From an uncultured Chloroflexia bacterium (GTDB lineage Bacteria > Chloroflexota > Limnocylindria > QHBO01): 64,000 nt of DNA. The notes beneath the pieces were generated by a model. The model searched no databases. It worked only from the letters and a program-made list of their open reading frames with translations, and was not told the DNA's origin. The position numbers and the translations under genes were made by a program. The stretch is from assembly GCA_963840145.1 (NCBI GenBank), contig CAWIXR010000001.1, positions 42,327-106,326 on the forward strand, given 5' to 3'. This document shows positions 9,313 through 26,943 of the stretch, in pieces (position 1 is the stretch's first letter; each line of letters opens with the position of its first letter).

Positions 9313-9561
9313 TCAGATCGGCGCGACGACCCGGACGATGGCGCTGATCAGCAGCATCGCGACGAGCGGCGCCCAGTCGATCCCGCTCGTCGGGGGCAGC
9401 ACGCGGCGGATCGGCGCCAGGATCGGCTCGGTGGCCTGGTAGATGAACGCGGTCAGCCCGCCGCCGCCCCGCGGGTTCGTCCAGCTCAGCAGGACGCGCG
9501 CGATGATGAGCAGCCAGAGGGCAATCGCCAGCAGCCAAACGAAGTTGGTGAGCACTGCCAT
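9313..9561 (-). CDS. YggT family membrane protein
   Basis: 82 aa, two hydrophobic helices. Sits in the dcw-distal position next to yggS. Confidence 0.8.
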   Translation of the reverse strand: MAVLTNFVWLLAIALWLLIIARVLLSWTNPRGGGGLTAFIYQATEPILAPIRRVLPPTSGIDWAPLVAMLLISAIVRVVAPI

Positions 9562-9582
9562 GAGTGCTGAGAATAGCAGCGA

Positions 9583-10272: not shown

Positions 10273-10382
10273 CCGTGCGATCGTCCCACAGTTCAGCGTC
10301 GAGAGGCATCCACGCTGTCTTGCCGACAGGCGACTTCCCGTCGCCCGGGAGTTGCGACCAACGACTGCCCGTTGATGGCAGC

Positions 10383-10463
10383 TCTCCCGCAGCACGGGAC
10401 GTCACGCGCCTGATGTGGCTGCGTCGACCGTCAGGTTGCACGCATCTCCCGCAGCACGGGACG
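10383..10463. repeat. 19-bp perfect direct repeat tctcccgcagcacgggacg, two copies (10383-10401 and 10445-10463), in the ftsZ-yggS intergenic region
   Basis: Read directly. On the minus-strand RNA each copy forms the same hairpin, UCCCG-UGCUG-CGGGA. Confidence 0.6.
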
Positions 10464-10525
10464 CCGGGACCTCAGATTGCAGGCGGCAAGCCTCCGGCGG
10501 AACCTGGGCCCGGCATCGGCCTCGG

Positions 10526-11776
10526 TCAGTCGCTCTTGCGACGCAGGAAGCTCGGGATGTCGAGGTCCGACTCGTTGTAGGCCGGGCGCTGGTCGAGGCT
10601 GCCGGAGCTGACCGGCAGCGGCTTGCGCTCGGTGGGCTTGACCTCGGTCGCCTCGCGCTCCGTCGGCCGTGCGAACGGCGACTCGGTGCCGAGCTGCTCG
10701 GTCAGCGACTCCCGCTGCTCACGATCGCGCTCGATCTCGGCGAGGATCTCCCGGCTGCGCTCGTCAAGCGAGGTCTCGATCCCGATGCTCGCCTCGGTGC
10801 CGTACTTCGACGGCTTCGCCTTCTTGCTCGAGTCGAAGCCCGTGGCGATGACCGTGACCTTCACCTCGTCGCGCATCCTGTCGTCGATCACCGTGCCGAA
10901 GATGATGTTCGCCTCCGGATCGGCGGCTTCCTTGATCACCTCGGCCGCCTCGTTGACCTCGAACAGGCCGAGGTCCGAGCCACCGGTGACGTTGAAGAGG
11001 ATGCCGCGCGCGCCGGTGATGTTGACCTCCAGCAGCGGGCTCATGACGGCGGCGCGTGCCGCCTCGATGGCCCGGTTCTCACCGGTGCCGATGCCGATGC
11101 CCATCATCGAGCTGCCCGCCTCGCGCATGATCGTCTTCACGTCGGCGAAGTCGAGGTTGATGAGGCCGGGAACCGTGATCAGGTCGCTGATGCCCTGGAC
11201 GCCCTGGCGCAGGACGTCATCCACGACGCGGAACGCGTCGACGATCGAGGTCTTCTTGTCGACGACCTCGCGCAGGCGATCGTTCGGGATCGTGATCAGC
11301 GTGTCGACCTTCTCCTTGAGCAGCTCGGTGTACTGCTCGGCGACGAGCTTACGGCGCATGCCCTCGAAGCTGAACGGCTTCGTCACCACCGCGACGGTCA
11401 GCGAGCCGAGGTCCTTGGCGATCTCGGCGATGACCGGTGCGGCGCCGGATCCGGTGCCACCGCCCATGCCGGCGGTGATGAAGATCATGTCGGCGTCCTT
11501 GAGCGCCTCGTAGATCTTCTCGGAGTCCTCCTCGGCGGCGCGCTGCCCGACACCCGGATCGGCTCCGGCGCCCAGGCCGCGCGTCATCTTGTCGCCGATG
11601 CGGATCTTGTGCGGCGCGTCGCTCTGGAGCAGCGCCTGGGCATCGGTGTTCACGCTGATGAACTCGACGCCCATCATCTCGGCCCGGATCATTCGGTTGA
11701 CGGCGTTGCTCCCGCCGCCACCGACCCCGATGACCTTGATGAGTGCGAAGTTCTCGGAATCCGATCGGAGCGGCAT
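10526..11776 (-). CDS. ftsZ: cell division protein FtsZ
   Basis: GGGTGSG tubulin signature (…[23 protein letters not shown]…) and acidic C-terminal tail. SD GAGAGGA lies upstream of the ATG. Confidence 0.97.
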
Positions 11777-11866
11777 ATCGGGTGATCCTCTCGATGAGTG
11801 CTGGCAAACCCGAGGGCTCGACGGGTTTGACCGATTCTAACGATCGCCGTATGACGGCGTGGGACG

Positions 11867-11920
11867 TTTTCCACATCCGGGCACGGAGTTATCCACACTG
11901 CGGCATCTGAGCGTGGATAG
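11867..11920. promoter_or_regulatory. DnaA-box cluster in the ftsA-ftsZ spacer: TTTTCCACA (11867-11875), perfect TTATCCACA (11889-11897), and inverted weaker CTATCCACG (complement 11912-11920)
   Basis: Matches the E. coli TTWTNCACA consensus. Lies upstream of ftsZ. Confidence 0.45.
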
Positions 11921-11970
11921 ATCGGAACGGATGTCCACCGTGGCGAACGCACTCGCGATGGCACGCACTC

Positions 11971-13206
11971 CTAGCCGGGGAAGAGGTTTCGCACCCACTC
12001 GCCGACGCGCGAGAGCGGGTTCGTACCGTTGCCGGTGCCGTAGCCGATCGGCTCCTCGCCGAGGTGGTGGGCGCCCCACAGGAGGAGGCCGATCGGTGTC
12101 GCGAATGCCGGGTTGCCGATCTGGTCCATCAGCCCGCCGACGCCCTGCGGCGACCCGGCGCGCACCGGCATCTCGAGTGTGTCGCGGGCGAGGACGTCGA
12201 CGCCGCCGAGTCGCGCCCCGCCGCCGGTCAGAACGGCTCCGGCCGGCAGCATGCCCGCGTGCCCGGAGCGCTTCACCTCCTCGCGGATGAGGCTGAAGAT
12301 CTCCCCCATCCGCGCCTCGATGATCTCGGACAGCTTGCGGCGCTGGATCGTCTGCCCGGCCGCCTCGCCGAGCACCGCGACGTTGAGCAGCTCCTGGGGC
12401 TCGACCTCGGCGAGGTTGGCGGTGCCGTGCTTGATCTTGATCTCCTCGGCCAGGTTGAGCGACGTCCGCAGGCCGATCGCCACGTCGTTCGTGACGTTGA
12501 TCCCACCGACCGGCAGCACGGCGGTGTGGTAGACCGCGCCGTCGACGAAGATCGCGATGTCGGTCGTGCCGCCGCCGATATCGGCCACCAGCACGCCGAG
12601 CTCCTTCTCCGTATCGGTCAGGGTGGCCTCGGCCGCGGCCAGCGAGCTGATCACCATCTCGTCGATCTGGACGCCGGCGCCGGTGACGCACTTCGACAGG
12701 TTCTGGACCGATGTCGCCGCCCCGGCGACGATATGGGTCTCGACCTCGAGGCGCACGGCCGACATCCCGAGCGGGTCCTTGATCCCCTCCTGGCCGTCGA
12801 CGATGTAGCCGCGCGGCACGACGTGCAGGATCTCGCGGTTGGACGGCACCTGGACGGCCTTGGCCGCATCGGTCGCGCGGCCGACGTCCTCGCGGCTGAC
12901 CTCGCGCTTGTGCCCCGAGACCGCCACGACGCCGCGGGAGTTCTGCGAGCTGATGTGCGAGCCGCCGACGGCGACGAAGGCCGATGAGATCTTGTACCCG
13001 GAGAGGCGCTCGGCCTTCTCGACGCTCGAGGCGATCGAGTTCACGGTCTGGTCGATGTTGGCGACCATCCCCTTCTTCATCCCGACGGACGGCGCGATGC
13101 CATAGCCGATGACGTTGACGTCACCGGCCCGGCCGACCTCTCCGATGAGGGTCGTCACCTTCGTGGTGCCCGCGTCGATACCGACCAGGACAGCCTCGCG
13201 TTCCAA
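11971..13206 (-). CDS. ftsA: cell division protein FtsA
   Basis: Actin-fold motifs (…VGIDAGTTKV…, …DIGGGTTDIAIF…). Start proposed at the TTG preceded by GGGAGGT. The track's longer ORF begins at 13245. Confidence 0.9.
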   Translation of the reverse strand: MEREAVLVGIDAGTTKVTTLIGEVGRAGDVNVIGYGIAPSVGMKKGMVANIDQTVNSIASSVEKAERLSGYKISSAFVAVGGSHISSQNSRGVVAVSGHKREVSREDVGRATDAAKAVQVPSNREILHVVPRGYIVDGQEGIKDPLGMSAVRLEVETHIVAGAATSVQNLSKCVTGAGVQIDEMVISSLAAAEATLTDTEKELGVLVADIGGGTTDIAIFVDGAVYHTAVLPVGGINVTNDVAIGLRTSLNLAEEIKIKHGTANLAEVEPQELLNVAVLGEAAGQTIQRRKLSEIIEARMGEIFSLIREEVKRSGHAGMLPAGAVLTGGGARLGGVDVLARDTLEMPVRAGSPQGVGGLMDQIGNPAFATPIGLLLWGAHHLGEEPIGYGTGNGTNPLSRVGEWVRNLFPG

Positions 13207-13260
13207 GCTACCTCCCGCTCCGGGCGTGCTCGGCGAGCGCGCCATCGCTATGGGCCGAGC

Positions 13261-13584
13261 CTACAGGAAGTGACGCCGGATGAGGGCCACGTTCTGGAAG
13301 ATGCGCAGGCCGAACGCGAAGAGGGCGACGAGGTAGAGGTCGATGCCCAGCCGGTCGCCGACGAACGTCAGCGCCACCGCCACCAGGGTGTTGGTGATGA
13401 ACCCCGAGACGAAGATCCGGTTGTCGTAGTGGTCGTCCAGCTCGGAGCGGATGGCGCCGAGCACCGAGTCCAGGCCAGCGAGGATGGCCACCGCGGAGTA
13501 CCTCGCGAGGTCGGGGCTCACGTCCACGTTGAGCACCAGACCGAGCGCGATCCCGAGCGCAAGGCCAATCAGCGGAAGCCACAT
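13261..13584 (-). CDS. sbp: DUF1290 small basic membrane protein (Sbp/YlxX-like) between ftsQ and ftsA
   Basis: 107 aa starting MWLP…; hydrophobic. Conserved position between ftsQ and ftsA, as in Firmicutes. Confidence 0.75.
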   Translation of the reverse strand: MWLPLIGLALGIALGLVLNVDVSPDLARYSAVAILAGLDSVLGAIRSELDDHYDNRIFVSGFITNTLVAVALTFVGDRLGIDLYLVALFAFGLRIFQNVALIRRHFL

Positions 13585-13643
13585 CTGGGACGGTCCCGAT
13601 ACGAGGGTCTCGGCGCGTGATCGACGGCAGCCCGGCCATCACG

Positions 13644-14561
13644 TCATCCCTTGGCACGGAAATATACCTTTCCGGGGTTGCGCACATCGACCCAACCGAC
13701 CTCGTTCTCGGCGTGTGTGGCGAAGAGCGTGCGGACCGCGGTGATCTGCCGCTCGAGGCGCTCGTCGGCCTCGCCGGACGTCTCGCGCGGGTCGATGCCG
13801 TAGACGCCGAGCGCAACCTCCCAGGTCTGCTCGGTCGCGAACAGCCGGAAGCCGAACTCGTCGTCGAGCTGGACGGCCAGGCGCGTCTCGTCCGAACCGA
13901 GCAGGGCCGGGTCGAGGGCGGCGACGTCGAGGGCGGTCCGCAGCAGCGGCTCGGGGATCACGTCGCCCACCGACAGGAGGCTTGCGCTTGACCGATGGTC
14001 CCCGATCCTCGGCAGCTCCGTGAGGGCAGCGTCGGTTTCGCTGGCCCGTGGCTCGCGGGCGAAGATCGTGCCGTCGGCCGCGCCGAGGTACCGCCAGTCC
14101 GGGGTCACCCACAGGAACGCGGCGCTGTGCTCCACGACGGTCACCGACAGCCCACCGCCGATGCCCGCCGAGACCGATGCGCTCTCGACCGCCGGCAGAC
14201 GCTCGATCTCCGCTGCCAGCGCATCGGTGTCGACGGCCAGGAGGTTCATGCCGCGGTGCTCCGCGAGAGCCTGCCGCAGGTCGCGGTCGGGGGTGTAGCG
14301 CTCGCCCGCCCACGCCACGTCGGTGACGAGCAGCCACGGTCCGTACAGCAGCGCCACCAGCACCGCGGCGGCCGCGACCGCGCCGACCGCGCCGATCAGG
14401 CGGCGGATCGACGGCATGCGGGCGCCGACTCGACGCCGGAACGAGATGCCAGGCTGGCGCGCCATGCGGCCCGAGCCCCTCGACACGGCACGCGGCCGCG
14501 AGCGGCCGGTTGCCCGCGCGGCCCGCTGCTTCGTGACGCGTGGCTGCGGCTTCAGCTTCAT
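13644..14561 (-). CDS. ftsQ: cell division protein FtsQ/DivIB (POTRA domain)
   Basis: Basic N-terminus, one TM segment (AVGAVAAAAVLVALLYGPWLLV), then periplasmic POTRA-like region. In dcw-cluster position. Confidence 0.8.
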   Translation of the reverse strand: MKLKPQPRVTKQRAARATGRSRPRAVSRGSGRMARQPGISFRRRVGARMPSIRRLIGAVGAVAAAAVLVALLYGPWLLVTDVAWAGERYTPDRDLRQALAEHRGMNLLAVDTDALAAEIERLPAVESASVSAGIGGGLSVTVVEHSAAFLWVTPDWRYLGAADGTIFAREPRASETDAALTELPRIGDHRSSASLLSVGDVIPEPLLRTALDVAALDPALLGSDETRLAVQLDDEFGFRLFATEQTWEVALGVYGIDPRETSGEADERLERQITAVRTLFATHAENEVGWVDVRNPGKVYFRAKG

Positions 14562-15664
14562 CGGTCCCGCTCCATCGCCAGCTCGATCAGCCGAGCGATC
14601 AGCTCACTGAAGGAGAGGCCGGCCAGCTCGGCCTGCTTCGGGTACATGCTCGTGGCCGTGAAGCCCGGCAGCGTGTTCATCTCGGAGAGGTACGTCTCCT
14701 CGACGGTGACGAGGAAGTCGATCCGCGCCAGCCCGGCCGCGTCCACCGCGCGGTAGGCGGCCAGGGACAGCTCCTTCAGCCGAGCGGCGAGGTCGGGATC
14801 GACCCGTGCCCGCGGCTCGACGGTGGCGAGGCCGGCCACGTACTTGGCCTCGTAGTCGTAGAACTCGTGGCTCGAGCGCACCTCGCCGGGCTCGAAGACG
14901 ATCGGGTCGTCGTTGCCGAGCACCCCGCACTCCAGCTCGCGCGCGCCCTCGACGTAGGCCTCGACGATCACCTTGCTGTCGTAGGCGAACGCCTCGTCGA
15001 GCGCCGCCGGCAGCTCGCCGGGCTCGTGGACGAGGCTCATCCCGACGCTGCTGCCCAGGCGCGCCGGCTTCACGACCACCCGCGCCCCGAGCGTCTCGGC
15101 CACGGCGCGTGCGACGTGGTCCGGCTCGCGCTCCCAGGCGCGGCGCCGGAACCAGCACGACTCGACCACCGGCAGTCCGTGGCCGCGCATCAGGTCCTTG
15201 AAGACGACCTTGTCCATGGCCACGGCGCTGGCGAGCACGCCCGCGCCGGTGTACGGGATGCCGGCCAGCTCCAGGAAGCCCTGGAGCGTGCCATCCTCGC
15301 CGAACGGGCCGTGGACGACGAGGAATGCGACGTCGATCGCCTCGGCCAGGGAGCGGACCGCGGCACGGGCGGCGAGGCGCTCGTCGCCGGTCGTGGCCAG
15401 CGCGTGGCTGGCGTGGGTCCGCAGGCGGGCGACCTCCTCGGCCGGGCTCGCCGCGCCGACGAGGCCCGCCAGTGAGGCGCCGTCGCCGAGCTCGGGAGCG
15501 GGGCCGTCGGGGAGCATCCAGTGCCCGTCGCGATCGATGTAGACGAGGTACGGGTCGTACCGATCCCGGTCGATCGCGCGCAGCACCGCCTCGGCCGAGG
15601 CGACGCTCACCTCGTGCTCGGCCGATCGGCCGCCGGCGAAGACGCCGACCCGCAGGCGGCTCAT
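14558..15664 (-). CDS. ddl: D-alanine--D-alanine ligase
   Basis: [24 protein letters not shown]… and ATP-grasp motifs. The track ORF is longer (to 16180) but the upstream part is murB read in another frame. Confidence 0.92.
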   Translation of the reverse strand: MSRLRVGVFAGGRSAEHEVSVASAEAVLRAIDRDRYDPYLVYIDRDGHWMLPDGPAPELGDGASLAGLVGAASPAEEVARLRTHASHALATTGDERLAARAAVRSLAEAIDVAFLVVHGPFGEDGTLQGFLELAGIPYTGAGVLASAVAMDKVVFKDLMRGHGLPVVESCWFRRRAWEREPDHVARAVAETLGARVVVKPARLGSSVGMSLVHEPGELPAALDEAFAYDSKVIVEAYVEGARELECGVLGNDDPIVFEPGEVRSSHEFYDYEAKYVAGLATVEPRARVDPDLAARLKELSLAAYRAVDAAGLARIDFLVTVEETYLSEMNTLPGFTATSMYPKQAELAGLSFSELIARLIELAMERDR

Positions 15665-16598
15665 CGCTCGGCCTCCGGCCAGTCGCCGACGAACTCGATC
15701 TCGTAGCGCAGCTCGACGCCGAAGCGGCCGGCCACGGTGGCGCGCACGTGGTCGCCGATGGCGCGGACGTCGGCCGCGCGCCCGCCGCGATCGGTGACGA
15801 TGAAGTTCGCGTGCAGCTCGCTGACCCGCGCCGTGCCGAGGCGATGGCCCTTCAGCCCGGCCGCCTCGATCAGTCGCCCGGCGTGGTCGCCCGGCGGATT
15901 GCGGAAGACGCTGCCGGCGTTCTGGTCCGCGAGCGGCTGGGTTGCGCGCCGATGCGCCTGGTGGCCGTCGACGAGGCCGCGGATCGCGTCGGCGTTGCCG
16001 GGCTCCAGGCCGATCTTCGCGCCGCAGATGACCTCGTCGCCGTGCTTGAAGCGCGACTCGCGGTAGGCGAAGGCGCACTCGTCGGCGGCGAGGCGGCGAC
16101 GCTCGCCGTCCGCATTCAGGATGTCGACCTCGCGCACGACATGCGCCATCTCGCCGCCATGGGCGCCCGCATTCGCCCACACCGCCCCGCCGACCGTGCC
16201 CGGGATGCTGATCGCCCAGTCGAAGCCGGCCAAACCGGCGGCCGCGCAGCGCTTGGCCAGCGCCGTCATCGATGCGCCGGCGTCGGCGGTGAGAGTCGTC
16301 CCGTCGATGCTCGCCGAGTCCGCGCGGACGCGCACGACGAGGCCGCGGATACCGGCATCGGCCACGACGATGTCGCTGCCCTTGCCCAGCAGGAATGCCG
16401 GCACGCCGGCCTCCCGTGCCACGCGCAGCACGGCGACGAGCTCGTCGAGCGTCTCCGGCGCGGCCATTCGGTCCGCGGTGCCGCCGACGCGCAGCGTGGT
16501 GAGCGGTGCCAGGTCCGCGTCACGCTGAAGCTTGACGCCGCCCTCGACGGCGAGCGCATCGAGCCGGTCGAGGGCATCCGCCACGGCGGCGCTCATGC
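15661..16598 (-). CDS. murB: UDP-N-acetylenolpyruvoylglucosamine reductase
   Basis: FAD-binding MurB motifs (…[13 protein letters not shown]…, …[10 protein letters not shown]…). Overlaps both the ddl start and the murG stop. Confidence 0.9.
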
Positions 16599-17723
16599 GG
16601 CCGTCTCCGAGGGGAGCGGACGCCGCTCGGCGAGCGCCATCAGCTCGTCGGCCAGCGAGCGCGCCGCGTCCGGACGGCCGAGACGACGCGCGGCTTCGGC
16701 CATCGCGGCACGCCGGGCGTCGTCGCGCAGCGCGGACACCTCGGCGACAAGCCGTTCGGCGTCGAGAGCCTCGTCGGCGACCACCCGCGCCGCGCCCTCG
16801 TCGCCGAGGTAAGACGCGTTGTAGCGCTGGTGGGCGCCGGCGTACGGGTACGGCACGAGGATCGAGGCCACGCCGACCGCCGCCAGCTCCGCACAGGTCG
16901 ACGAGCCCGCACGGCCGACGACGAGGTCGGAGGCGACGAGCGCATCGGCCATGCGGTCGGTCATGAACGGCTCGGCGGTGTAACGCGAGCGCAGCTCGGC
17001 GGGCAGGCGCTGGCGGGCGGCGCCCGCATCGGCCATGCCGGCATCGCCCGCGAGGTGCAGGAGGTGCCAGTCGGTGAGCAGGCGCGGCAGCGCATCGGTC
17101 ACGGCGGCATTGAATCGAGTCACAGCCTGGGAGCCCCCGAAGACGAGAAGGAGGCGGTCGTCCCGGCCGAGGCCGAAGGAGCGGCGTGCGGCGTCGCGGT
17201 CGATCTCGGCGAAGGAGCGGATCGGGGTGCCGGACACGAACCCGTTGCCGGGGAAGGCATCCAGGGTCGGCGGGAAGCTGACCGCCACGCGGGTCGCGAA
17301 GCGGCCGATCGCGCGCGTCGCGCGTCCCGGCAGGACGTTGCCCTCCCAGACGAGCGTCGGAATGCCGCGCGCACGGGCGGCGAGGACGAGCGGGAGGGCC
17401 AGGTAGCCGCCGGTCGTGAACAGCGCGGCGGGTCGAAGGCGGCCGAGGAGCCACCACGCCTGCGGGACGCTGGCGGCAAGGCGCACCGGATCGGCCACCG
17501 TGTGCGGCGAGAGGCCGGCCGAGCGCAGCGAGCGCACGACGAGCTCGTGGTAGCGAAGCTCGCCGCGCATCGGGTGATCGGCCACGATTCGTCGTTCGAA
17601 GCCACGGACGCCACCCACGTAGTCGAGCTCAACGTCGCTTCGTGCGTCGCGGAGCGCTCGCGCGACGGCCAGCGCGGGGTACACGTGCCCGCCTGTCCCG
17701 CCGCCCGACACCAAACACCGCAT
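16593..17723 (-). CDS. murG: UDP-GlcNAc:undecaprenyl-PP-MurNAc-pentapeptide GlcNAc transferase
   Basis: MRCLVSGGGTGGHVYPALAVA… N-terminal G-loop typical of MurG. Confidence 0.92.
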   Translation of the reverse strand: MRCLVSGGGTGGHVYPALAVARALRDARSDVELDYVGGVRGFERRIVADHPMRGELRYHELVVRSLRSAGLSPHTVADPVRLAASVPQAWWLLGRLRPAALFTTGGYLALPLVLAARARGIPTLVWEGNVLPGRATRAIGRFATRVAVSFPPTLDAFPGNGFVSGTPIRSFAEIDRDAARRSFGLGRDDRLLLVFGGSQAVTRFNAAVTDALPRLLTDWHLLHLAGDAGMADAGAARQRLPAELRSRYTAEPFMTDRMADALVASDLVVGRAGSSTCAELAAVGVASILVPYPYAGAHQRYNASYLGDEGAARVVADEALDAERLVAEVSALRDDARRAAMAEAARRLGRPDAARSLADELMALAERRPLPSETAA

Positions 17724-18900
17724 CGAACAAGGATCCTGTCTGTGAGGTCTCGCGGCTGATCGACAGCAGGATGCCGACGGCCGCGAGGTTGATGGTCAGC
17801 GCCGATCCGCCGGCGCTGATGAACGGGAGCGGGATGCCCGTCACCGGCAGGAGCGCGGTGACGACCATCATGTTGATGCAGGCCTGGACCACGAGCCAGG
17901 TCGTGATGCCGCAGGCCACCAGGCCGGAAAACGTGTCCGGGGCACGGATCGCGATCCGGTAGCCCTGGACCGCGATGACCACGAACAGGGCCACCACCGT
18001 CAACGTGCCGACGAGGCCCCACTCCTCGCCGATGATCGCGAAGATGAAGTCGGTGGACGGCGCCGGCAGGTAGAGGAACTTCTGACGGCTCTCGCCGAGA
18101 CCGAGGCCGGTGAGCCCGCCCAGGCCGAGCGCGAGCAGTGCCTGGATCGTGTTGTAGCCGCTGCCCAGCGGGTCGCGGAAGGGGTCGAGGAAGGTCTGCA
18201 CCCGCTCGAGCTGGTAGCTCGTCGCGCTGATCATCAGCCACGCCGATGCCGCCACTCCCGCTGTGATGGCGCCCAGGTACAGCAGGTTGGCGCCGGCCAT
18301 GAAAAAGATGCTGACCGCCACGATCACGTACACGCCGGCCGTCCCGAGGTCGGGCTCGGCGGCGATGAGGAAGAAGCCCGGCGCGACGAGCATCGTGAAC
18401 GGGACGAGGCCGTTCCAGAACGAGCGGACGGCGCTGCCGCGCCGGTCGAGCCAGTGCGCGAGGTAGAGGATGACCGCCAGCTTCGCGAACTCGGCCGGCT
18501 GCAGCGTCCCGACGCCGGGGATGACGATCCAGCGTCGCGAGCCGTTGATCTCGGCGCCGATGCCCGGAATCAGCACGACGATCAGCAGGACGAGGGTGAT
18601 CACGTAGATCGGGATCGCCAGGTAGCGCAGGTGTCGGAAGTCGATCCTCATCGCCACCACCAGCCCGGTGAGGCCGATGCCGGCCCACACCAGCTGCTCG
18701 AGTCCCTGGGCCGCCGGATCGGCGCTGCTGATGTAGGAGCGCACGCTCGACGCCGAGTAGACCATCACGATGCCGATGGCGGTCAGCGCCATCACCGCCA
18801 GCAGAAGCGCGTAGGCCGGCTCGTGCCGCTCGCGGCGGACGCCGGTCTTTGCCCGCGTACCCCGGCGCGCCGCGGCGACCGGTAGCGTCGCGGCGGTCAT
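17629..18900 (-). CDS. ftsW: FtsW (SEDS-family peptidoglycan glycosyltransferase / lipid II flippase)
   Basis: Multi-TM SEDS protein (…QPAEFAKLAVILYLAHWL…, …PFISAGGSAL…). C-terminal basic tail overlaps the murG start. Confidence 0.9.
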   Translation of the reverse strand: MTAATLPVAAARRGTRAKTGVRRERHEPAYALLLAVMALTAIGIVMVYSASSVRSYISSADPAAQGLEQLVWAGIGLTGLVVAMRIDFRHLRYLAIPIYVITLVLLIVVLIPGIGAEINGSRRWIVIPGVGTLQPAEFAKLAVILYLAHWLDRRGSAVRSFWNGLVPFTMLVAPGFFLIAAEPDLGTAGVYVIVAVSIFFMAGANLLYLGAITAGVAASAWLMISATSYQLERVQTFLDPFRDPLGSGYNTIQALLALGLGGLTGLGLGESRQKFLYLPAPSTDFIFAIIGEEWGLVGTLTVVALFVVIAVQGYRIAIRAPDTFSGLVACGITTWLVVQACINMMVVTALLPVTGIPLPFISAGGSALTINLAAVGILLSISRETSQTGSLFDAVFGVGRRDRRARVPRAGRRASAPRRTKRR

Positions 18901-20327
18901 CGCCCGTCCTCCAGGCGCTCGACGGCGGCGCGGAACGCGTCGCCGCGTGCCGCGTAGTCGACGAACATGTCGAAGCTGGCTGCCGCCGGCGAGAGCAGCG
19001 CGACGTCGCCGGGCCGCGTCGCGTCGGCGGCCACCGTCACCGCCTCGTCCATCGACGCGGCGCGCCGCACGGGCACGCGGCTCCTCAGCAGGGCCTCCAG
19101 CTCGTCGGCCGTCTCCCCGATCAGCACGGCCGCCTTGCAGCGCGTCGCGATCGCGTCGGCGAAGGCGCCGTACTCGAGGCCCTTGTCCTTGCCGCCGGCG
19201 ATCAGCACGATCGGCGCGTCGAACGCCTCGAGCGCCGCGATGGCCGCCTGCGGGATCGTCGCCTGCGAGTCGTTGATCCAGCGCACGCCACCGTGCTCGG
19301 CGATCGTCTCGAGCCGGTGCGGGACGCCGGCGAAGGTTCGCGCGGCGACGCCGATCGCGGCGGCGGGGACGCCGACGAGGGTCGCGGCCAACGCCGCGCC
19401 GAGGACGTCGGCGAGCATGTGGCGCCCCGGCAGGCGCACCTGGTCCGCGGCGACGACCCGCTCCCCCGCCACGACGACCCAGCCGTCGTCGAGCCACGCC
19501 TCGGTCGGCCCGTGACCCGGCCGCTGCATGCCGTACCACGCCAGCGACGCCGGTGGCAGCCGCTCCCCGAGGTCGCGGCAGCCAGGGTCGTCGTGGTTGA
19601 GCACGACCCGTCCCGCCGGCGCGGTGAGCTCCGCCAGGAGCGCCTTGACGGCGCGGTACGCCTCCACCGTTCCGTGGCGGTCGAGGTGGTCCTCGGCGAC
19701 GTTCGTGTAGAGCGCGACGTCGACGCCGCGGCTGATCGTCGGCAGCTGGAGCTCACTCAGCTCCAGCACGACCCAGTCATCGGGTCCGAGCTCGAGGGAG
19801 CGCTCGACCAGCGGCGTCCCGATGTTGCCGCCCAGGACCGTCGAGATGCCGCCCGCCTCCAGCATCGCGGCCAGCAGCGAGGCGGTCGTGGTCTTGCCCT
19901 TCGTGCCGGTCACGCCCGCGAGTCGCGCATCGGTCAGGCGCAGGAAGAGGTCGACCTCGCTGATGACCTCCGCACCGCGCGCCTCGGCGGCGAGCAGCGC
20001 CTCGCGCAGCCAGGGGTCGGTCGTCGGGAAGCGGGCCGAGACCGATGGAGAGGTGACGAGCAGGTCGGCGTGCTCGAGCAGCGCGGCCGCCTCGGCCTCG
20101 CTCACGTCGAGGGCCAGGCGTACCGGGCGGGCCCCGAGCGCTGAGATGGCATCGGCCAGCTCGGAGGCCGGCCGCCGGTCGTAGGCGGCGACGACCGCGC
20201 CGGCATCCGCCAGGAAGCGGCAGGCGGCGATGCCGGAGCGAGCCAGGCCGAGCACGACGGTGCGCAGGCCGCGAAGGTCGTCGGCGGACCCGATCGGCGT
20301 CGATGGGGCAGTCATCATCGGTCCATC
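18897..20327 (-). CDS. murD: UDP-N-acetylmuramoylalanine--D-glutamate ligase
   Basis: Begins MMTAPSTPIG…; VLGLARSGIAACRFL Rossmann N-terminus and GVTGTKGKTTT P-loop. The track ORF extends further upstream in the same frame. Confidence 0.9.
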   Translation of the reverse strand, partial: DGPMMTAPSTPIGSADDLRGLRTVVLGLARSGIAACRFLADAGAVVAAYDRRPASELADAISALGARPVRLALDVSEAEAAALLEHADLLVTSPSVSARFPTTDPWLREALLAAEARGAEVISEVDLFLRLTDARLAGVTGTKGKTTTASLLAAMLEAGGISTVLGGNIGTPLVERSLELGPDDWVVLELSELQLPTISRGVDVALYTNVAEDHLDRHGTVEAYRAVKALLAELTAPAGRVVLNHDDPGCRDLGERLPPASLAWYGMQRPGHGPTEAWLDDGWVVVAGERVVAADQVRLPGRHMLADVLGAALAATLVGVPAAAIGVAARTFAGVPHRLETIAEHGGVRWINDSQATIPQAAIAALEAFDAPIVLIAGGKDKGLEYGAFADAIATRCKAAVLIGETADELEALLRSRVPVRRAASMDEAVTVAADATRPGDVALLSPAAASFDMFVDYAARGDAFRAAVERLEDGR

Positions 20328-21313
20328 TAGAGCTGCTGGTACGTGGCGAGGAAGAGGCTGAAGCCGAGCAGCCCGGCGAGCGCCGCGACGATCCAGAAGC
20401 GCAGCGTGATCTTCTCCTCCGCCCAGCCGATGAGCTCGAAGTGGTGGTGCAGCGGCGTCATGCGGAAGATGCGGCGCCCGCGGAAGCGGTAGCTGAGCAC
20501 CTGGATGACCACGCTCATGATCACGGCGAAGAAGACGATCCCGACGACCGCCAGGAGCGGCAGCTGGCCGTTCACGGTGGCGACGACTGCCAGCGTGGCG
20601 CCGAGGCTCAGCGACCCGGAGTCGCCCATGAAGATCTGGGCCGGGTGGACGTTGAACCAGAGGAAGCCCATCAGCGCACCGATGACGAGCGCGCAGAACA
20701 CCGCCAGCTCCGGGTGCGCGAGCTTGATGTCGGCGACCGGGACGAGGCTGATCAGCAGGTAGGCGACGAAGCTGAAGATGAGGACGCCGCCGGCGAGCCC
20801 GTCGAGGCCATCGGTCAGGTTCACCGCGTTGCTGGTGCCGACGATGACGAACGCGATGAAGCCGATGAGCAGGACCGGCGCCACCTCGATCTGGCCGACG
20901 AGCGGGATGTTCACGCCGGTCAGGTGGTAGTGGCTCCAGATGTAGACCGCGGCGAGGACCGCGACCCCGGTCTGCCACACGAGCTTCCAGCGGCCGCGCA
21001 TGCCGACGCCGCTGCGGACGTTCACGAAGTCGTCGATCGCGCCGAGGATGCCGACCCCGACCAATGTCAGCATCGGCGTCAGCGTGGCCGGACTCTCGAG
21101 TCGCAGGGCCATCGCCAGGAAGAGGACGACGACCACGACGAGCATGCCGCCCATCGTCGGCGTGCCGGCCTTGCCGTAGTGCGCCTCCGGCCCGTCGCTG
21201 CGGATCTGCTTTCCGTAGCCGAGGCGCTGGAGCAGGTTGATGTAGATCGGCGCCAGGATCACCAGGCCGACGAAGGCCAGCAGCAGCGCGACGACCATGT
21301 CGATGAGGTTCAC
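20327..21313 (-). CDS. mraY: phospho-N-acetylmuramoyl-pentapeptide transferase
   Basis: 328 aa, 10-TM MraY with the DD…D and HHH motifs (…TPLHHHFELIGW…). Confidence 0.95.
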   Translation of the reverse strand: MNLIDMVVALLLAFVGLVILAPIYINLLQRLGYGKQIRSDGPEAHYGKAGTPTMGGMLVVVVVLFLAMALRLESPATLTPMLTLVGVGILGAIDDFVNVRSGVGMRGRWKLVWQTGVAVLAAVYIWSHYHLTGVNIPLVGQIEVAPVLLIGFIAFVIVGTSNAVNLTDGLDGLAGGVLIFSFVAYLLISLVPVADIKLAHPELAVFCALVIGALMGFLWFNVHPAQIFMGDSGSLSLGATLAVVATVNGQLPLLAVVGIVFFAVIMSVVIQVLSYRFRGRRIFRMTPLHHHFELIGWAEEKITLRFWIVAALAGLLGFSLFLATYQQL

Positions 21314-22749
21314 GGCGCGCTCCCCCGCAGCAGGTCGACGGCCCGGTCGAGACCGATGCCACGCGAGCCCTTCAGCAGCACGACGTCCCCAACCCCGGGC
21401 GCGACCTCGCGCTCAAGGACCGCGACCGCCTCCTCGGCGTCCGCCGCGCTCGCGACCGGGATGGCATCGGCGCCCTCCGCGATCCAGGCGCCACGCGGCC
21501 CCACGGTGACGAGCATGTCCACGGCGGCCGCCGCCCTAGCGCCGATCTCGCGATGCAGCCGCTCCTCGTCCGGGCCAAGCTCGAGCATGTCGCCGAGCAC
21601 CGCGATCCGCCGGCGGCCGGCCGGCAGCGGAGTCTCGGCCAGGAAGTCGAGCGCGGCGGCGACGCTGACAGGCGACGCGTTGTAGGTGTCGTCGACGAGC
21701 GTCGCGCCGGAGGCGGCCTCGACGACCTGCATGCGATGGGCGGCCCGGCTGCCCGCCCCAAGCGCTTCCGCGGCGTCGTCGATCCCGATCCCCAGCCGCT
21801 CGGCGACGGCAAGGGCGGCCAGGGCATGCGGGACGAGGTGGCGGCCGGGGGTCCCGCTGCGCATTCGCCGCGTGGTCCACGGCGCGCGGACCGTGAATTC
21901 GGTGCCGGCCAGGCCGTGGCTGACGACGTCGGTTGCGCCGACGTCGGCCGACGGGCCGAGCCCGAACGTCCGCACCGCGGCCGGCGTCACCTGCGCCATG
22001 GCCGCGACGCGCGGGTCGTCCGCATTCAGCACGGCCAGGCCGTCGCGCGGCAGCGCGGCGGGGAGCTCGGCCTTGGCGGCCGCGATGCGCTCGATGCTGC
22101 CGGCGCGCTCGAGGTGCGTCGGGTGGACCGCAAGCACGACACCGACCTCCGGCCGGGCGATCTCCGCAAGCAGTGCGATCTCGCCGACGGTGTACATGCT
22201 CATCTCGAGCACGGCAGCCTCGTGGGACGGCTCGAGCCGCAGGAGCGTGATCGGCAGGCCGGTCTCCGAGTTGAGGTTGCCGTCGTTGCGCAGCGTGGTG
22301 AGGCCGCGCGACAGGACGTCGGCGGTGATCTCCTTGGCGATCGTCTTGCCCGTCGAACCGGTGATACCCACCACACGCACCGCGTGGCGAGACCGCCACC
22401 AAGCGGCGAGATCCTGGAGCGCGCGAAGCGCATCGGCCACGACGACCTGCGGGGCGGAGCGGAGGTCCTGCGGCAGGTCGATCGGCCGCTCGACGAGGGT
22501 GGCCGCGGCTCCGGCGCGGAGCGCATCGGCCACGAAGGCATGGCCGTCCGCGCGCTCACCTGGGAGCGCGACGAAGATGGAGCCGGGGGTGACGCGGCGC
22601 GAGTCGACCGACGCGCCGGTGATCGAGAACGAGGCCGCCGGAGCTGGCCCGTGCAGCCGGCCGCCGGTCGTGGCGAGCACGTCCTCGAGGCGGATGGTGG
22701 GAGGCACGCGCACCCCGCTGCGGACTTCGTTCGAGTCTAGCAAGGTCAC
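21310..22749 (-). CDS. murF: UDP-N-acetylmuramoyl-tripeptide--D-alanyl-D-alanine ligase
   Basis: GITGSTGKT P-loop and the MurF-specific NDGNLNSETGLP motif. Confidence 0.9.
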   Translation of the reverse strand: MTLLDSNEVRSGVRVPPTIRLEDVLATTGGRLHGPAPAASFSITGASVDSRRVTPGSIFVALPGERADGHAFVADALRAGAAATLVERPIDLPQDLRSAPQVVVADALRALQDLAAWWRSRHAVRVVGITGSTGKTIAKEITADVLSRGLTTLRNDGNLNSETGLPITLLRLEPSHEAAVLEMSMYTVGEIALLAEIARPEVGVVLAVHPTHLERAGSIERIAAAKAELPAALPRDGLAVLNADDPRVAAMAQVTPAAVRTFGLGPSADVGATDVVSHGLAGTEFTVRAPWTTRRMRSGTPGRHLVPHALAALAVAERLGIGIDDAAEALGAGSRAAHRMQVVEAASGATLVDDTYNASPVSVAAALDFLAETPLPAGRRRIAVLGDMLELGPDEERLHREIGARAAAAVDMLVTVGPRGAWIAEGADAIPVASAADAEEAVAVLEREVAPGVGDVVLLKGSRGIGLDRAVDLLRGSAP

Positions 22750-24536
22750 GGCTGTGCGACCGGCTCGGCGGGCCGGTCCGGCGGGATGGCGAGGTAGTCG
22801 AGCACCTGGGGCATGAGGCGGGCGTACACGTTCTCCGGGCGATCGGGCATGGTGCGTCCACCGGCGCCGGCCGGTCGATGGATGAGGACGAGCGTCACCA
22901 GCTTCCTGTCACCCGCCGGGAGGATGCCGACGAAGCTCGAGTCGACCCAGCCCTCGCGGTAGACCCAGCGCTCCACGAGCTGGCCGTCCGGGCCCTCGAC
23001 CATGATCGGTGCGGCGATCTGGGCGGTGCCCGTCTTGCCGGCCACGGTGTAGCCGGCCACCTGGGCGCCGGTCGCGATGCCGTCGTCGATCGCGTTCGTG
23101 AGCAGCTCGATCATCGTCTGGGCCGTCTCCTCCCGCATGATCCGCTCCGCGGGCGGCTGCGCGGCCTCATGGAACGTGCCATCCGGGTCGGTCCAGCCGG
23201 CGACCACGTGTGGGGTCACCAGCTCACCCCCGTTCGCGAAGGCCGCGTAGCCCGCGACGAGCTGGACGGCCGTCAGGCTCAGCCCCTGCCCGAACGAGTT
23301 CTGGGCGGCGGTCAGGTCGCCGCTGGCGTTCGCGCCGTCGGGGTCCCACACCACCCCGCTCGCCTCGCCGGCCAGCTCGATGCCGGTCTGCGCGCCGAAT
23401 CCGAAGCGCAGCAACGCCTCGTACAGCTCTCGGCGCCCGAGCTCGAGGCCGATCTTCGCGGCGCCGACGTTGTTCGATAGCGCCAGCACATCGGCCGCCG
23501 TGACGGGCCCGTGGCCGTACGGGCGGTCCCAGCGGTCGGCATTCTGGATGCGGATGACGCCGACGCGCAGGTTGTTGTCGTCGAGGAAGGTGTCATCGGT
23601 GTCGATCGCCCCGGCGTCGAGCGCGGCGGCCACGGTGAAGGCCTTCATCACCGATCCGGGCTCGTACTGCCGCGCAACCGCCGGGTTGCTGAACAGCTCG
23701 CCGTCGGTGACGGCGAAGTCGTTGGCGTCGTACGACGGGTAGCTGGCCATCGCCAGGATCGCGCCGGTCTCGGCGTCCATGATCACGCCGGTCGCGCCTG
23801 CCGCGCGATTCATCCGGTAGGTGTCCCAGATCTCCTGCTCGAGCATGTGCTGGACGCCGAGGTCGATCGTGAGGCTGAGGTCGGCGCCGTCGACCGGCTC
23901 GAGGAGCAGCGTCGCGGAGTCCGCGATCCTCCGGCCGATGACGTCCTCCTGCGCGCTCACCGCGCCAGGCGTCCCAGCCAGCAGCGCGTTCTCGCCGGCC
24001 TCGATCCCGTACTGGCCATGCCCGTCGACGTCGACGAAGCCGAGCAGCTGGGCCGCCAGCGTCGTGTCGTTGGCGACGCCCTGGACCGGGTAGACGCGCT
24101 GCGTCTCGGGCAGCAGGCCGATGCCGCGCAGGTCGAGCGAACGGATCCGCTCAGCCGCCTCTGGCGTGATGCGCCGCTTGAGCCAGACCCAGTCGCGCTC
24201 GCCGTCGAGGCTGGCGCGAAGCTGGGCCGAGGAGATGTCGAGGATCGGCGCGAGGATCCGCGCCGTCTTCCCCGGGTCGTCGATCAGCGGCGGGGTGGCG
24301 AAAACCGACTGCAGCTCGATCGAGGTGGCCAGCAGCGCCCCGTTGGCATCGGTGATCTCGCCACGCTCGGCCGGGATCTGCTCCTGCTGCGAGAGCTGGC
24401 CGAGCGCCATCGTCGACAGCCACGGCTGCTGGACGACCTGCCACCAGACGAGGCGCGCGCCGATCGCCGTCGCCACGAATGCGACGAGGATGAGGAGGAC
24501 CATGGCGCGGGCACGGCTGTCGGTCCTGGCGAGCAT
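22746..24536 (-). CDS. ftsI: penicillin-binding protein 2x / FtsI (peptidoglycan D,D-transpeptidase)
   Basis: N-terminal TM, PBP dimerisation domain, and transpeptidase motifs (SVMK…, SNN, KTGT). Confidence 0.9.
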   Translation of the reverse strand: MLARTDSRARAMVLLILVAFVATAIGARLVWWQVVQQPWLSTMALGQLSQQEQIPAERGEITDANGALLATSIELQSVFATPPLIDDPGKTARILAPILDISSAQLRASLDGERDWVWLKRRITPEAAERIRSLDLRGIGLLPETQRVYPVQGVANDTTLAAQLLGFVDVDGHGQYGIEAGENALLAGTPGAVSAQEDVIGRRIADSATLLLEPVDGADLSLTIDLGVQHMLEQEIWDTYRMNRAAGATGVIMDAETGAILAMASYPSYDANDFAVTDGELFSNPAVARQYEPGSVMKAFTVAAALDAGAIDTDDTFLDDNNLRVGVIRIQNADRWDRPYGHGPVTAADVLALSNNVGAAKIGLELGRRELYEALLRFGFGAQTGIELAGEASGVVWDPDGANASGDLTAAQNSFGQGLSLTAVQLVAGYAAFANGGELVTPHVVAGWTDPDGTFHEAAQPPAERIMREETAQTMIELLTNAIDDGIATGAQVAGYTVAGKTGTAQIAAPIMVEGPDGQLVERWVYREGWVDSSFVGILPAGDRKLVTLVLIHRPAGAGGRTMPDRPENVYARLMPQVLDYLAIPPDRPAEPVAQP

Positions 24537-24579
24537 GTCGGTCTCCGTGCTGCGGCCGCGTTCGGCCGCGTGAGATGGG

Positions 24580-24993
24580 TCAATCGGCGGACGTATCCGC
24601 GGGCTTGGCGAACGTGACGGCCGCGCCGTCGAGGTGCTGAAGGCCGAGCTGGAAGCGCGCGCGCCGGATGATCTCCGCCGGCGAGCGGGCCTGCGCGACC
24701 GCGGTGATCAGCTGCTGCTGCTCGGCGCGGCGATCGGCCAGGCTGAGGGCGAGGTTGTCGATCTCGTAGCCGCGTGCAGCGACGCCGGTCGATTGGCTGA
24801 GGTAGAAGATGGCGAGGGCGGCGGCGACCACGATCGCCACCAGGAACGGCCGAACGTCAACCGATGCGGCCAGCCGGATGCGGCCCGCGCGACGCGTTCG
24901 GCGCGCGGGGCGGCTGGCCTTGCGGCTTCGGACTCGCGACCGCCCGCCCAGAAACCACGGGCTCGTGGCGGGTCGGGCGCCCATGACGGCCAT
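24580..24993 (-). CDS. ftsL: cell division protein FtsL-like (basic N-terminus, single TM, coiled coil)
   Basis: Position between rsmH and ftsI. TM segment FLVAIVVAAALAIFYL followed by a heptad-like region. Confidence 0.65.
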   Translation of the reverse strand: MAVMGARPATSPWFLGGRSRVRSRKASRPARRTRRAGRIRLAASVDVRPFLVAIVVAAALAIFYLSQSTGVAARGYEIDNLALSLADRRAEQQQLITAVAQARSPAEIIRRARFQLGLQHLDGAAVTFAKPADTSAD

Positions 24994-25017
24994 TGCTCGG
25001 TACCCCTCGGTCGGTGA

Positions 25018-25230
25018 CTAGGCCGCGGTCGCGCGGCGGCGGGCCGAGATGGCGAAGGTGGTCGGCGCCTCGAAGTTGGCACCCTCCTCGATCTCGATGG
25101 CAGCGACCTGGTCGCTGAGCCAGTAGGCCTCCTCGCTCGCCGCGCGAAGGCGCCGCTCGCGAAGGTCGCGCTGCCGAGCCGAATACATCCGGCGGCGGCT
25201 GGCCTGGTGACGCGTACGTCCCTTGCTCAC
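25018..25230 (-). CDS. small hypothetical protein (70 aa) between rsmH and ftsL
   Basis: Track ORF with high GC3, consistent with coding. Basic N-terminus, acidic C-terminus. No recognisable family. Confidence 0.4.
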   Translation of the reverse strand: MSKGRTRHQASRRRMYSARQRDLRERRLRAASEEAYWLSDQVAAIEIEEGANFEAPTTFAISARRRATAA

Positions 25231-25259
25231 TCGGGTGACCCTCCTGCTCGTGCTCGCGC

Positions 25260-26219
25260 CTACGCGAGCTTCTCGGCGACGCGCAGCTTCGCGCTGCGCG
25301 CGCGGCGATTCCGCCGGACCTCGTCTGGGCCCGCGGTGACGACGCCCTTGGTGATCGCGCGCAGCTGCGCGCGGTGGCCGCAGGTGCAGACCGGCGGCAA
25401 CGGATCCTCGATGCAGTCGCGGCTCTCGCGAGCGACGAAGCGCTTGACGATCCGGTCCTCGAGGCTGTGATAGCTGATGACGGCCATCCGGCCGCCGGGT
25501 CGGAGCGCGGCGAGCGCGCCGGCCAGGCCCGACGAGAGGACCTCCACCTCGCGGTTGACCGCGATGCGCAGCGCCTGGAAGGTCCGGGTTGCCGGGTGGA
25601 TGCGGCCGGCATCGGCGCCGCCCGGGCGCGAGGGCGAGGCCGCGGCGACGACCGACGCCAGGTCGGCGGCGGTCACGAGCCGACCCTCCGCGCGCGCCGC
25701 CACGATCGCCTTCGCGATGCGGCCTGCACGGCGCTCTTCACCAAACGTCGCGAGGATTCCGGCGAGCTCTCGCTCCGAGGAGCGGTCGATGAGCTCGAGA
25801 GCCGATACACCACTGGTTTCATCGAATCTCATGTCCGGCGGCGCATCGGCCGCAAAGCTGAATCCCCGGCCGGGATCGGCAAGCTGGTAGCTGCTGAGGC
25901 CGAGGTCGAAGAGAACGCCGTCCAGTGGCGCCACGCCGGAGGCGATCGCCGCGTCGTAGATCGCCTCGAAGTTGGCGTGGCGCAGCACGACCCGGTCACC
26001 AAATGGGGCCAGCACGGAGGTCGCCTCCGCGATGGCCGCCCGGTCGGCATCGATGCCGAGCAGGCGGCCATGCGGAGACGTCGCCTCCAGAATCCGCTCG
26101 GCGTGCCCACCGCCGCCGACCGTGCAGTCCGCCACGGAGCTGCCAGGACCCAGCGCGAGCGAGGCAATGACCTCGTCGACCAGGACCGGCAGGTGCCCTT
26201 CTCCCATGGCGCGTCGCAC
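25260..26219 (-). CDS. rsmH: 16S rRNA (cytosine1402-N4)-methyltransferase
   Basis: HLPVLVDEV…DCTVGGGGHAERIL… SAM-binding motifs typical of MraW/RsmH. Confidence 0.92.
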   Translation of the reverse strand: MRRAMGEGHLPVLVDEVIASLALGPGSSVADCTVGGGGHAERILEATSPHGRLLGIDADRAAIAEATSVLAPFGDRVVLRHANFEAIYDAAIASGVAPLDGVLFDLGLSSYQLADPGRGFSFAADAPPDMRFDETSGVSALELIDRSSERELAGILATFGEERRAGRIAKAIVAARAEGRLVTAADLASVVAAASPSRPGGADAGRIHPATRTFQALRIAVNREVEVLSSGLAGALAALRPGGRMAVISYHSLEDRIVKRFVARESRDCIEDPLPPVCTCGHRAQLRAITKGVVTAGPDEVRRNRRARSAKLRVAEKLA

Positions 26220-26277
26220 CTCTGTTGTCGAACGGCGGGCCGACCGGCCCGGAGACGCATGAATGGCCGGGGCACCG

Positions 26278-26727
26278 TCAGATGCCCAGGTCGGCGAGGT
26301 GCTCGGCGAGCGCCTCCGGCTCGTTCTCGATCTGGGACCGATACGGTCCCCACCGCGTCGGCGCCCAGATCTCGAGTCGGTTCAGCGCGCCGACCACGAC
26401 CACCTCGCTCTCGGTCAGGCCGGCGTACTCGCGGAGATAGCTCGGGACGAGGACCCGCCCCTGGCGATCGAGCTCCACCTCGACCGCCCCCGAGCTCATG
26501 AAGCGGCCGAACTGTCGCGCGGCCGCGTTTGTCGTCGGCAGGCCCTGGATTCGGGCCGCCAGCTCTTCCCAGGTGTCCGACGGAAAGATCGCCAGGCAGC
26601 CATCCAGCCAGCGCGCCAGCGTGGCGCCCTGTGCCAGCCGCGGGCGGAAGCGGACCGGGACCGCCACTCGGCCCCGATCGTCCAGTGCGTGCCGGAACTC
26701 CCCGGTGAGGAAGGTCGCCCGCTCCAT
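26278..26727 (-). CDS. mraZ: transcriptional regulator MraZ
   Basis: 149 aa with the duplicated MraZ fold motifs (…DDRGRVAVP…, …DRQGRVLVP…). Confidence 0.92.
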   Translation of the reverse strand: MERATFLTGEFRHALDDRGRVAVPVRFRPRLAQGATLARWLDGCLAIFPSDTWEELAARIQGLPTTNAAARQFGRFMSSGAVEVELDRQGRVLVPSYLREYAGLTESEVVVVGALNRLEIWAPTRWGPYRSQIENEPEALAEHLADLGI

Positions 26728-26740
26728 CTGGCCTGTCTTT

Positions 26741-26770
26741 CACCACTAGTCCCCATTTGGCCCCATTTGG
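26741..26770 (-). promoter_or_regulatory. MraZ operator: three direct repeats with 10-bp phasing (ccaaaTGGGG / ccaaaTGGGG / actagTGGTG on the minus strand)
   Basis: Read directly. Lies between the predicted Pmra -10 and the mraZ start, as in E. coli, where MraZ binds TGGGN direct repeats. Confidence 0.6.
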
Positions 26771-26784
26771 AACCACAGGGCGCC

Positions 26785-26813
26785 ACTATACAGGTCGCAA
26801 GGTGCCCGTCAAG
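26785..26813 (-). promoter_or_regulatory. Pmra-like sigma-70 promoter: -35 TTGACG (complement 26808-26813), 17-nt spacer, -10 TATAGT (complement 26785-26790)
   Basis: Read directly on the minus strand: ccccTTGACGggcaccttgcgacctgTATAGTggcg. Confidence 0.55.
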
Positions 26814-26943
26814 GGGTTTTGCGCATCGGCGCATGGGAGATTTCGGCCAGGACGCCTGCGGGCGCCGCCCGACAGATCGGGCAAGTGGAGCGAGCGAGGC
26901 TTCCTGCGGGACTCCGCCCGATGGATCGGCCGAGAGCGCCGGT

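Follow-up and report, generated by a model that had tools for sequence, protein, structure and literature searches.

The dcw cluster of Candidatus Limnocylindria (Chloroflexota) lacks murE and murC

When a cluster of division and cell wall (dcw) genes encodes the Mur ligases MurD and MurF, with MurE and MurC gone from it, have these two enzymes been lost, are they hidden as domains of neighbouring proteins, or are they encoded at another place in the genome? The question is raised by a 64-kb stretch of DNA (the window, whose own numbering is used throughout), in which a dcw cluster occupies positions 10526-26812 with every gene on the minus strand. The order of the cluster is promoter-mraZ-rsmH-orf70-ftsL-ftsI-murF-mraY-murD-ftsW-murG-murB-ddl-ftsQ-sbp(DUF1290)-ftsA-ftsZ, and yggS-yggT-tRNA-Val follow. 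An original prediction had described murE as absent between ftsI and murF, and murC as absent between murG and murB. Our analysis makes it very probable that this is the canonical dcw operon of Candidatus Limnocylindria, from which murE and murC were relocated elsewhere before the class radiated, and that the arrangement is a gene-order variant typical of the lineage, not a loss of function or an artefact.

Results

Genes were named with NCBIfam and Pfam models, mostly at scores above the curated cutoffs, and the gene list of the original prediction proved right in every item. The ftsI gene (22746-24536; 596 aa), encoding a class B penicillin-binding protein that matches the SpoVD, PBP2 and FtsI models (best E=1e-106), overlaps murF (21310-22749; 479 aa; TIGR01143, 396 bits vs. 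a cutoff of 289) by 4 nt. The same start/stop overlap joins murG (16593-17723; 376 aa; TIGR01133, 234 bits, slightly under the cutoff of 250) to murB (15661-16596; 311 aa; NF010480, 318 bits vs. 259). These overlaps leave no space for murE at the one junction or for murC at the other, and no decayed remnant of either. Overlaps of 4 nt are also found at murF/mraY, murD/ftsW, murB/ddl and ddl/ftsQ, where mraY lies at 20327-21313 (TIGR00445, 275 bits), murD at 18897-20318 (473 aa; TIGR01087, 356 bits vs. 212), ftsW at 17629-18900 (TIGR02614, 373 bits vs. 337.5), ddl at 14558-15664 (368 aa; NF002528, 387 bits vs. 262) and the ftsQ/divIB-like gene at 13644-14561 (POTRA_1, 35.9 bits vs. 23, with a weak match to the FtsQ model). 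Both absences thus stand as predicted, and so do the 1-4 nt overlaps claimed between the remaining mur genes as far as the six 4-nt junctions are concerned; the claim does not extend to mraY and murD, which are separated by an 8-nt spacer, nor to ftsW and murG, which overlap by up to ~95 nt with the longest murG open reading frame (ORF).

The identity of the two remaining ligases follows from their scores. The one encoded after ftsI is MurF, reaching 396 bits with TIGR01143 vs. 96 bits with the MurE model, and the one encoded after mraY is MurD, with 356 bits for TIGR01087 vs. 88 bits for the MurC model. The hidden Markov model (HMM) alignments cover residues 48-474 of the 479 in MurF and 21-467 of the 473 in MurD, and FtsI, MurG, MurB and Ddl are of normal length. 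The cluster therefore holds two of the four Mur ligases, a full set not being needed for dcw membership, as some of them are missing from the cluster in many lineages. In a phmmer search of six-frame ORFs of at least 80 aa, with the MurD and MurF of the window and the dcw-encoded MurE, MurC, MurD and MurF of E. coli K-12 as probes, no MurE- or MurC-like ORF was found in the 64-kb window, and the matches were to the murD and murF genes only. Because the E. coli MurE and MurC probes cross-detect the MurD and MurF of the window (E=1e-9 to 1e-10), a genuine MurE or MurC would have shown up. Mur ligases of different phyla share ~30-38% identity; no Chloroflexota replicon that could serve as a closer MurE/MurC seed was found in the plasmid collection, and the high-GC MurC motif pattern DDY[AG]HHPTE had no match in viral contigs.

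The same arrangement is found throughout the relatives of this locus. They come from a scan with MurD in which each GTDB species was represented by one genome; the 80 best MurD loci (L001-L080) were mapped, with a further relative (L082) added. Both murE and murC are missing from the cluster in 80/80 loci, whose MurD identity to the window runs from 86% to as low as 49%, and over the same range the order from mraZ through yggT, orf70 included, is kept. No ORF matching MurE or MurC best occurs within ~10 kb on each side of the cluster in any of the 80. Median distances are -4 nt between ftsI and murF (n=59) and -1 nt between murG and murB (n=53), the latter never exceeding 116 nt. Two closed long-read chromosomes, OY969424.1 and OY969885.1, are among the loci with this arrangement, and an independently gene-called contig of 973 kb gives the same gene picture. 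Since the order is the same in all 80 loci, the class inherited a cluster without murE and murC from its ancestor, and an assembly artefact is excluded.

Gene content and order in these loci and in L082 also agree with the window in the presence of orf70, sbp, the promoter and the repeat array described below. Variants are limited to a few loci in which 0.6-1.9 kb is inserted between ftsA and ftsZ and to five loci of Limnocylindrales type (L069, L070, L071, L073 and L077) in which sbp was not detected by tblastn. One of the five, L071 from a Limnocylindrales metagenome-assembled genome (MAG), is peculiar in another respect: murF is gone from its ftsI-mraY junction, and murB is followed (14724-18164 of that locus) by genes for an alpha/beta hydrolase and for two divergent enzymes, a MurF-like ligase (206 bits, under the cutoff; ORF of at most 595 aa) and a Ddl with 27% identity, which looks like the swap-in of a foreign murF-ddl pair.

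The relatives also tell where the window belongs. The closest ones, with a top MurD identity of 86%, are MAGs recorded as Candidatus Limnocylindria, Chloroflexota or Chloroflexia, and ~74 of the 80 best MurD loci carry these labels or that of Limnocylindrales. Candidatus Limnocylindria is a class within Chloroflexota in the NCBI taxonomy; its members are uncultured and live in soil and freshwater. Their genomes are reported to have a median size of 2.39 Mb and 68.9% GC (PMC10608941). The window agrees with this GC content, having 65-74% per 2-kb block and about 70% overall. Neither an rRNA operon nor a ribosomal-protein cluster was found in the window, and by its protein matches it is placed in Chloroflexota, class Candidatus Limnocylindria. 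The original prediction had pointed to a high-GC lineage outside the classical Actinobacteria, for example a Chloroflexi-like one, and had listed a type-A RNase P and canonical Shine-Dalgarno usage; the MurD relatives bear out the former, while class A RNase P RNA (28341-28682) and GGAGG-like motifs 5-10 nt before the start codon of most genes are indeed present. Five MAGs with a Limnocylindria-type dcw cluster (L004, L007, L019, L033 and L061) are recorded as Binatia, Steroidobacteraceae, Angelobacter or Zixiibacteriota, and these labels probably reflect mis-binned contigs or wrong taxonomy.

At ~70% GC spurious ORFs arise in all frames, and coding frames were therefore chosen by third-position GC, with start codons set by position and Shine-Dalgarno-like motifs. 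At the promoter-proximal end lie mraZ (26278-26727; TIGR00242, 118 bits vs. a cutoff of 98) and rsmH, also called mraW (25260-26219; TIGR00006, 301 bits); together with a collinear core on a single strand, in the canonical order known from E. coli, they mark the locus as a dcw cluster. They are followed by orf70 (25018-25230), a 70-aa ORF, and by a gene for an FtsL-like bitopic protein (24580-24993). The latter matches FtsL_Actino with 30 bits, under the cutoff of 55; its position fits ftsL, and the protein has a basic N-terminus, a single transmembrane helix and a coiled-coil region. In L082 the FtsI homologue carries PBP_dimer and Transpeptidase domains and the MurG homologue Glyco_transf_28 domains. 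Downstream of ftsQ are sbp (13261-13584; 107 aa), encoding a small membrane protein, ftsA (11971-13245; TIGR01174, 421 bits) and ftsZ (10526-11776; TIGR00065, 428 bits). The stop codon of sbp lies 15 nt ahead of the ftsA ATG, and the start of ftsA may alternatively be the TTG at 13206, with GGGAGG as its Shine-Dalgarno sequence. Beyond ftsZ come yggS/ylmE (9583-10395; TIGR00044, 150 bits), whose true start is likely the ATG at 10272, as the HMM alignment begins only at residue 64, then yggT/ylmG (9313-9561; PF02325, 65 bits) and tRNA-Val (9210-9286).

How might such a cluster be transcribed? A sigma-70-type promoter, TTGACG-16 nt-TATAGT, with 10/12 positions matching, is predicted at 26785-26812 (minus strand) upstream of mraZ, and it is the sole promoter-like site in the 19.5 kb from 9000 to 28500. 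Between its -10 hexamer and the mraZ start, four MraZ-box-like direct repeats (GTGGT/TGGGG/TGGGG/GTGGT; 26742-26776, minus strand) follow each other with an exact period of 10 nt. Promoter and boxes are retained class-wide while the flanks diverge. This 10-nt-periodic GTGG/TGGG layout is that of known MraZ operators (TGGGN repeats), and we regard the array as a putative MraZ operator. Terminator-like sites in the region are not above chance frequency, and together with the 4-nt overlaps and the lone promoter-like site this suggests that the genes are co-transcribed as an operon.

A further regulatory element may lie in the ftsA-ftsZ spacer. Here a pair of DnaA-box-like 9-mers, TTTTCCACA and TTATCCACA (11867-11897, plus strand), is located just upstream of a TAGAAT -10-like hexamer. 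The one, TGTGGATAA, is a perfect match and the other reads TGTGGAAAA; the two are spaced by 21-22 nt and keep the same position in L001-L065. A third, inverted copy (cTATCCACg) is found upstream of the pair. Of the 29 relatives whose spacer measures 100-500 nt, 23 have one box or more, and about 17 have the full pair. The DnaA-box-like sites and the TAGAAT hexamer may thus constitute an internal ftsZ promoter under the control of DnaA or another regulator. A stem-loop in the ftsZ leader (AAACCCG...CGGGTTT) was rejected as a candidate element, since its stability does not exceed that of shuffled sequence (z = -0.7).

The short reading frame between rsmH and ftsL is a genuine gene. A GGAGGG Shine-Dalgarno motif accompanies it, it is called as a gene in L082, and 47 relatives carry it in the same position (48 sequences counting the window copy); changes among these fall mostly on third codon positions, and the median ratio of nonsynonymous to synonymous substitution rates (dN/dS) is 0.35, indicating purifying selection. 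The product has no match in Pfam or NCBIfam. There are 458 homologues, which among the matches listed are ~70 aa long throughout, and the few named ones among these matches are hypothetical proteins of Limnocylindrales or Chloroflexota. An exhaustive profile search returned 33 representative clusters in 1.84 billion proteins, and the family is therefore narrow and lineage-restricted. An AlphaFold2 model of the protein shows a long arginine-rich helix (residues 3-38; pLDDT, the predicted local distance difference test score, 82-96), then a short acidic helix and a disordered tail, and the C-terminus ends in a conserved Ala-Ala (..TAA/SAA). From its place in the operon one may speculate that its role is related to division or to RsmH.

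With regard to the anchoring of the Z-ring, the locus encodes FtsA and, directly upstream of it, the small basic protein Sbp, which begins with MWLP and belongs to DUF1290 (PF06947, 121 bits vs. a cutoff of 24.4). At each level of divergence Sbp is better conserved than any other protein of the cluster, with median identities of 97, 93, 87 and 74%, compared with 97, 90, 84 and 67% for FtsZ. The latter ends in the usual DIPSFLRR peptide, and the C-terminal ..RVGEWVRNLFPG of FtsA looks like an amphipathic tail. No sepF lies between yggS and yggT, which are 21 nt apart, no ylmD lies between ftsZ and yggS, and none of the window ORFs scanned had a Pfam match to SepF or DivIVA. The presence of FtsA and Sbp without SepF at its canonical site, and the lack of ylmD from the cluster, had been part of the original prediction and are borne out. 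A locus of the SepF-based type, as in actinobacteria or cyanobacteria, is not what the 21-nt gap and the presence of ftsA describe, and as far as the locus goes FtsZ would be anchored by FtsA and not by SepF.

Some features outside the cluster deserve mention. Upstream of mraZ lies an ORF of up to 451 aa (26944-28299, minus strand), which most relatives have in the same position; its product has no Pfam or NCBIfam match. The product combines a motif containing Cys (..HRCYAFGDP..RVCQERGYGNCPRYL..), a single transmembrane helix, a linker rich in Pro, Thr and Ser, and a domain at the C-terminus, and its homologue in L082 has a faint SLH match. At the other end of the window an ORF of more than 4994 codons (49017-64000, plus strand; third-position GC 0.94) runs past the window end. 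Over its first 1500 residues it matches models for NosD (beta-helix), CBM96 and Chlamydia PMP repeats, and it may thus encode a giant protein of the surface or adhesin type. In between, gene strand flips from minus to plus at ~41.6 kb, beside tRNA-Met and parA-parB (41681-43565), a perfect DnaA box occurs at 41721-41729, and the GC skew changes sign at ~38-42 kb; no dnaA gene was found in the window. The region 38000-46500, ~15 kb from the dcw operon, may be origin-proximal.

Discussion

The nearest textbook match to the cluster is that of B. subtilis, mraZ-mraW-ftsL-pbpB-spoVD-murE-mraY-murD-spoVE-murG-murB-divIB-ylxW-ylxX-sbp-ftsA-ftsZ. Both share the backbone, with murB inside, sbp before ftsA-ftsZ, FtsA present and murC elsewhere. 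The ligase genes are distributed in the reverse manner, since B. subtilis has murE in the cluster and keeps murF and ddl elsewhere, whereas in the window it is murE that lies outside, with murF and ddl within the cluster. In addition, the window has no spoVD duplicate and no ylxW/ylxX, carries the extra orf70 between rsmH and ftsL, and continues downstream with yggS-yggT without ylmD, sepF or divIVA. In E. coli K-12 (mraZ-rsmH-ftsL-ftsI-murE-murF-mraY-murD-ftsW-murG-murC-ddlB-ftsQ-ftsA-ftsZ-lpxC) the shared genes are collinear with those of the window, mraZ is first, ftsQAZ are distal and the overlaps are tight, but murE and murC are inside and murB and sbp are not, while the window has murB, sbp and orf70 inside and murE and murC outside. 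The actinobacterial cluster, as for example in Mycobacterium or Streptomyces, ...ftsI-murE-murF-mraY-murD-ftsW-murG-murC-ftsQ-ftsZ-ylmD-ylmE-sepF-ylmG-divIVA, resembles the window in its high GC content, its mraZ-rsmH-ftsL-ftsI head and the position of ylmE (yggS) and ylmG (yggT) past ftsZ. It differs in having murE and murC inside, in lacking ftsA and sbp, and in the sepF between ylmE and ylmG, on all three of which the window is the opposite.

Where, then, are the two ligases? The MurD and MurF of the window score well above their NCBIfam cutoffs, the MurD model being an equivalog, and this implies that their substrates, the products of MurC and MurE, exist. If the whole class did without canonical MurC and MurE, non-orthologous enzymes would have to supply stem-peptide positions 1 and 3, or precursors would have to be salvaged or scavenged, with MurD and MurF kept. 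Such a class-wide loss would fit the finding that no MurC or MurE homologue turned up, either in the 64 kb of the window or, in the 80 relatives, in the ~20 kb surrounding the cluster. These ~20-64 kb, however, are 1-3% of a 2.4-Mb genome, and absence there weighs little. MurD and MurF are canonical and need the products of MurC and MurE, and to our knowledge no bacterium has MurD and MurF and lacks MurC and MurE. According to a general statement from a KOFAM survey, moreover, the peptidoglycan machinery of the lineage is like that of its sister phyla (bioRxiv 10.1101/2021.08.23.457424). We therefore consider a class-wide loss very improbable. The history of dcw clusters is one of genes lost or delocalised, and the Chloroflexi ancestor has been reconstructed with sub-clusters; murC, murB and ddlB are frequently found outside the cluster (PMC8871954). 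Given the need of MurD and MurF for their substrates, the survey and this rule of delocalisation, we infer that MurC and MurE are encoded elsewhere in the genome.

Even smaller is the chance that the gap concerns this genome alone, as an artefact of assembly or binning or as a deletion in one strain. The exact FtsZ sequence has no database record, which would be in line with an aberrant assembly, but the junctions are in-frame 4-nt overlaps, and 80 independently assembled genomes from many projects, closed chromosomes included, have the identical arrangement; on this conservation the idea was rejected. Just as hard to maintain is that the MurE and MurC activities reside in fused domains of neighbouring proteins, such as a bifunctional MurE-MurF or MurC-Ddl. 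Mur chimeras do occur in other phyla (PMC10214165), and the MurE/MurF model NF008896 does match the MurF of the window. The match spans the MurF half of the model only (509-957 of 965), with 390 bits vs. a cutoff of 1023, and the MurC-Ddl model NF011171 likewise matches in its Ddl half only. With MurF at 479 aa and Ddl at 368 aa, no product has ~450 residues to spare, and a fusion, which the original prediction had already held unlikely, was rejected on product lengths and HMM coordinates.

We thus return to a canonical Limnocylindria dcw operon with murE and murC relocated. By family assignment it encodes the late steps of peptidoglycan precursor synthesis, both the cytoplasmic and the membrane ones, carried out by MurB, Ddl, MurD, MurF, MraY and MurG, as well as the divisome core of FtsL, FtsI, FtsW, FtsQ, FtsA and FtsZ. 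In the mechanism that we propose, a single MraZ-controlled promoter upstream of mraZ would drive the operon, with MraZ regulating its own expression, and a second promoter, internal to the operon, probably serves ftsZ. FtsA would presumably tether the Z-ring, which fits the C-terminal peptide of FtsZ and the C-terminal tail of FtsA, and murE and murC, moved elsewhere on the chromosome, would still supply the MurC and MurE steps on which MurD and MurF depend. Some points weigh against this reading. The relocation of murE and murC is drawn from pathway logic and one general statement in the literature; operon structure and promoter use are predictions from sequence; and MurG scores a little below its cutoff, while the assignments of FtsL and FtsQ are weak.

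The arrangement comes as no surprise, because dcw variation is already the norm outside rod-shaped Gram-negatives (PMC8871954, PMC10214165), and gene order is unconserved in Gram-positive or non-rod species (PMC10214165). Variation of this kind has been described before and MAGs of the class are already public, so the significance is modest and current understanding is not overturned. The main value of the analysis is that it places the window in Chloroflexota, class Candidatus Limnocylindria. For the evolution of dcw clusters it adds a data point from a deep lineage of Terrabacteria, which has a near-complete, Firmicutes-like cluster with murB, ddl, sbp and ftsA inside and with murE and murC cleanly gone, and in which the usually adjacent murE-murF pair is split. 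Could this cluster also be of use to cell-division research? The very strong conservation of Sbp and the class-restricted orf70, which one might speculate to be a new regulator of division or of the cell wall, may be of interest to that field, if the lineage becomes tractable.

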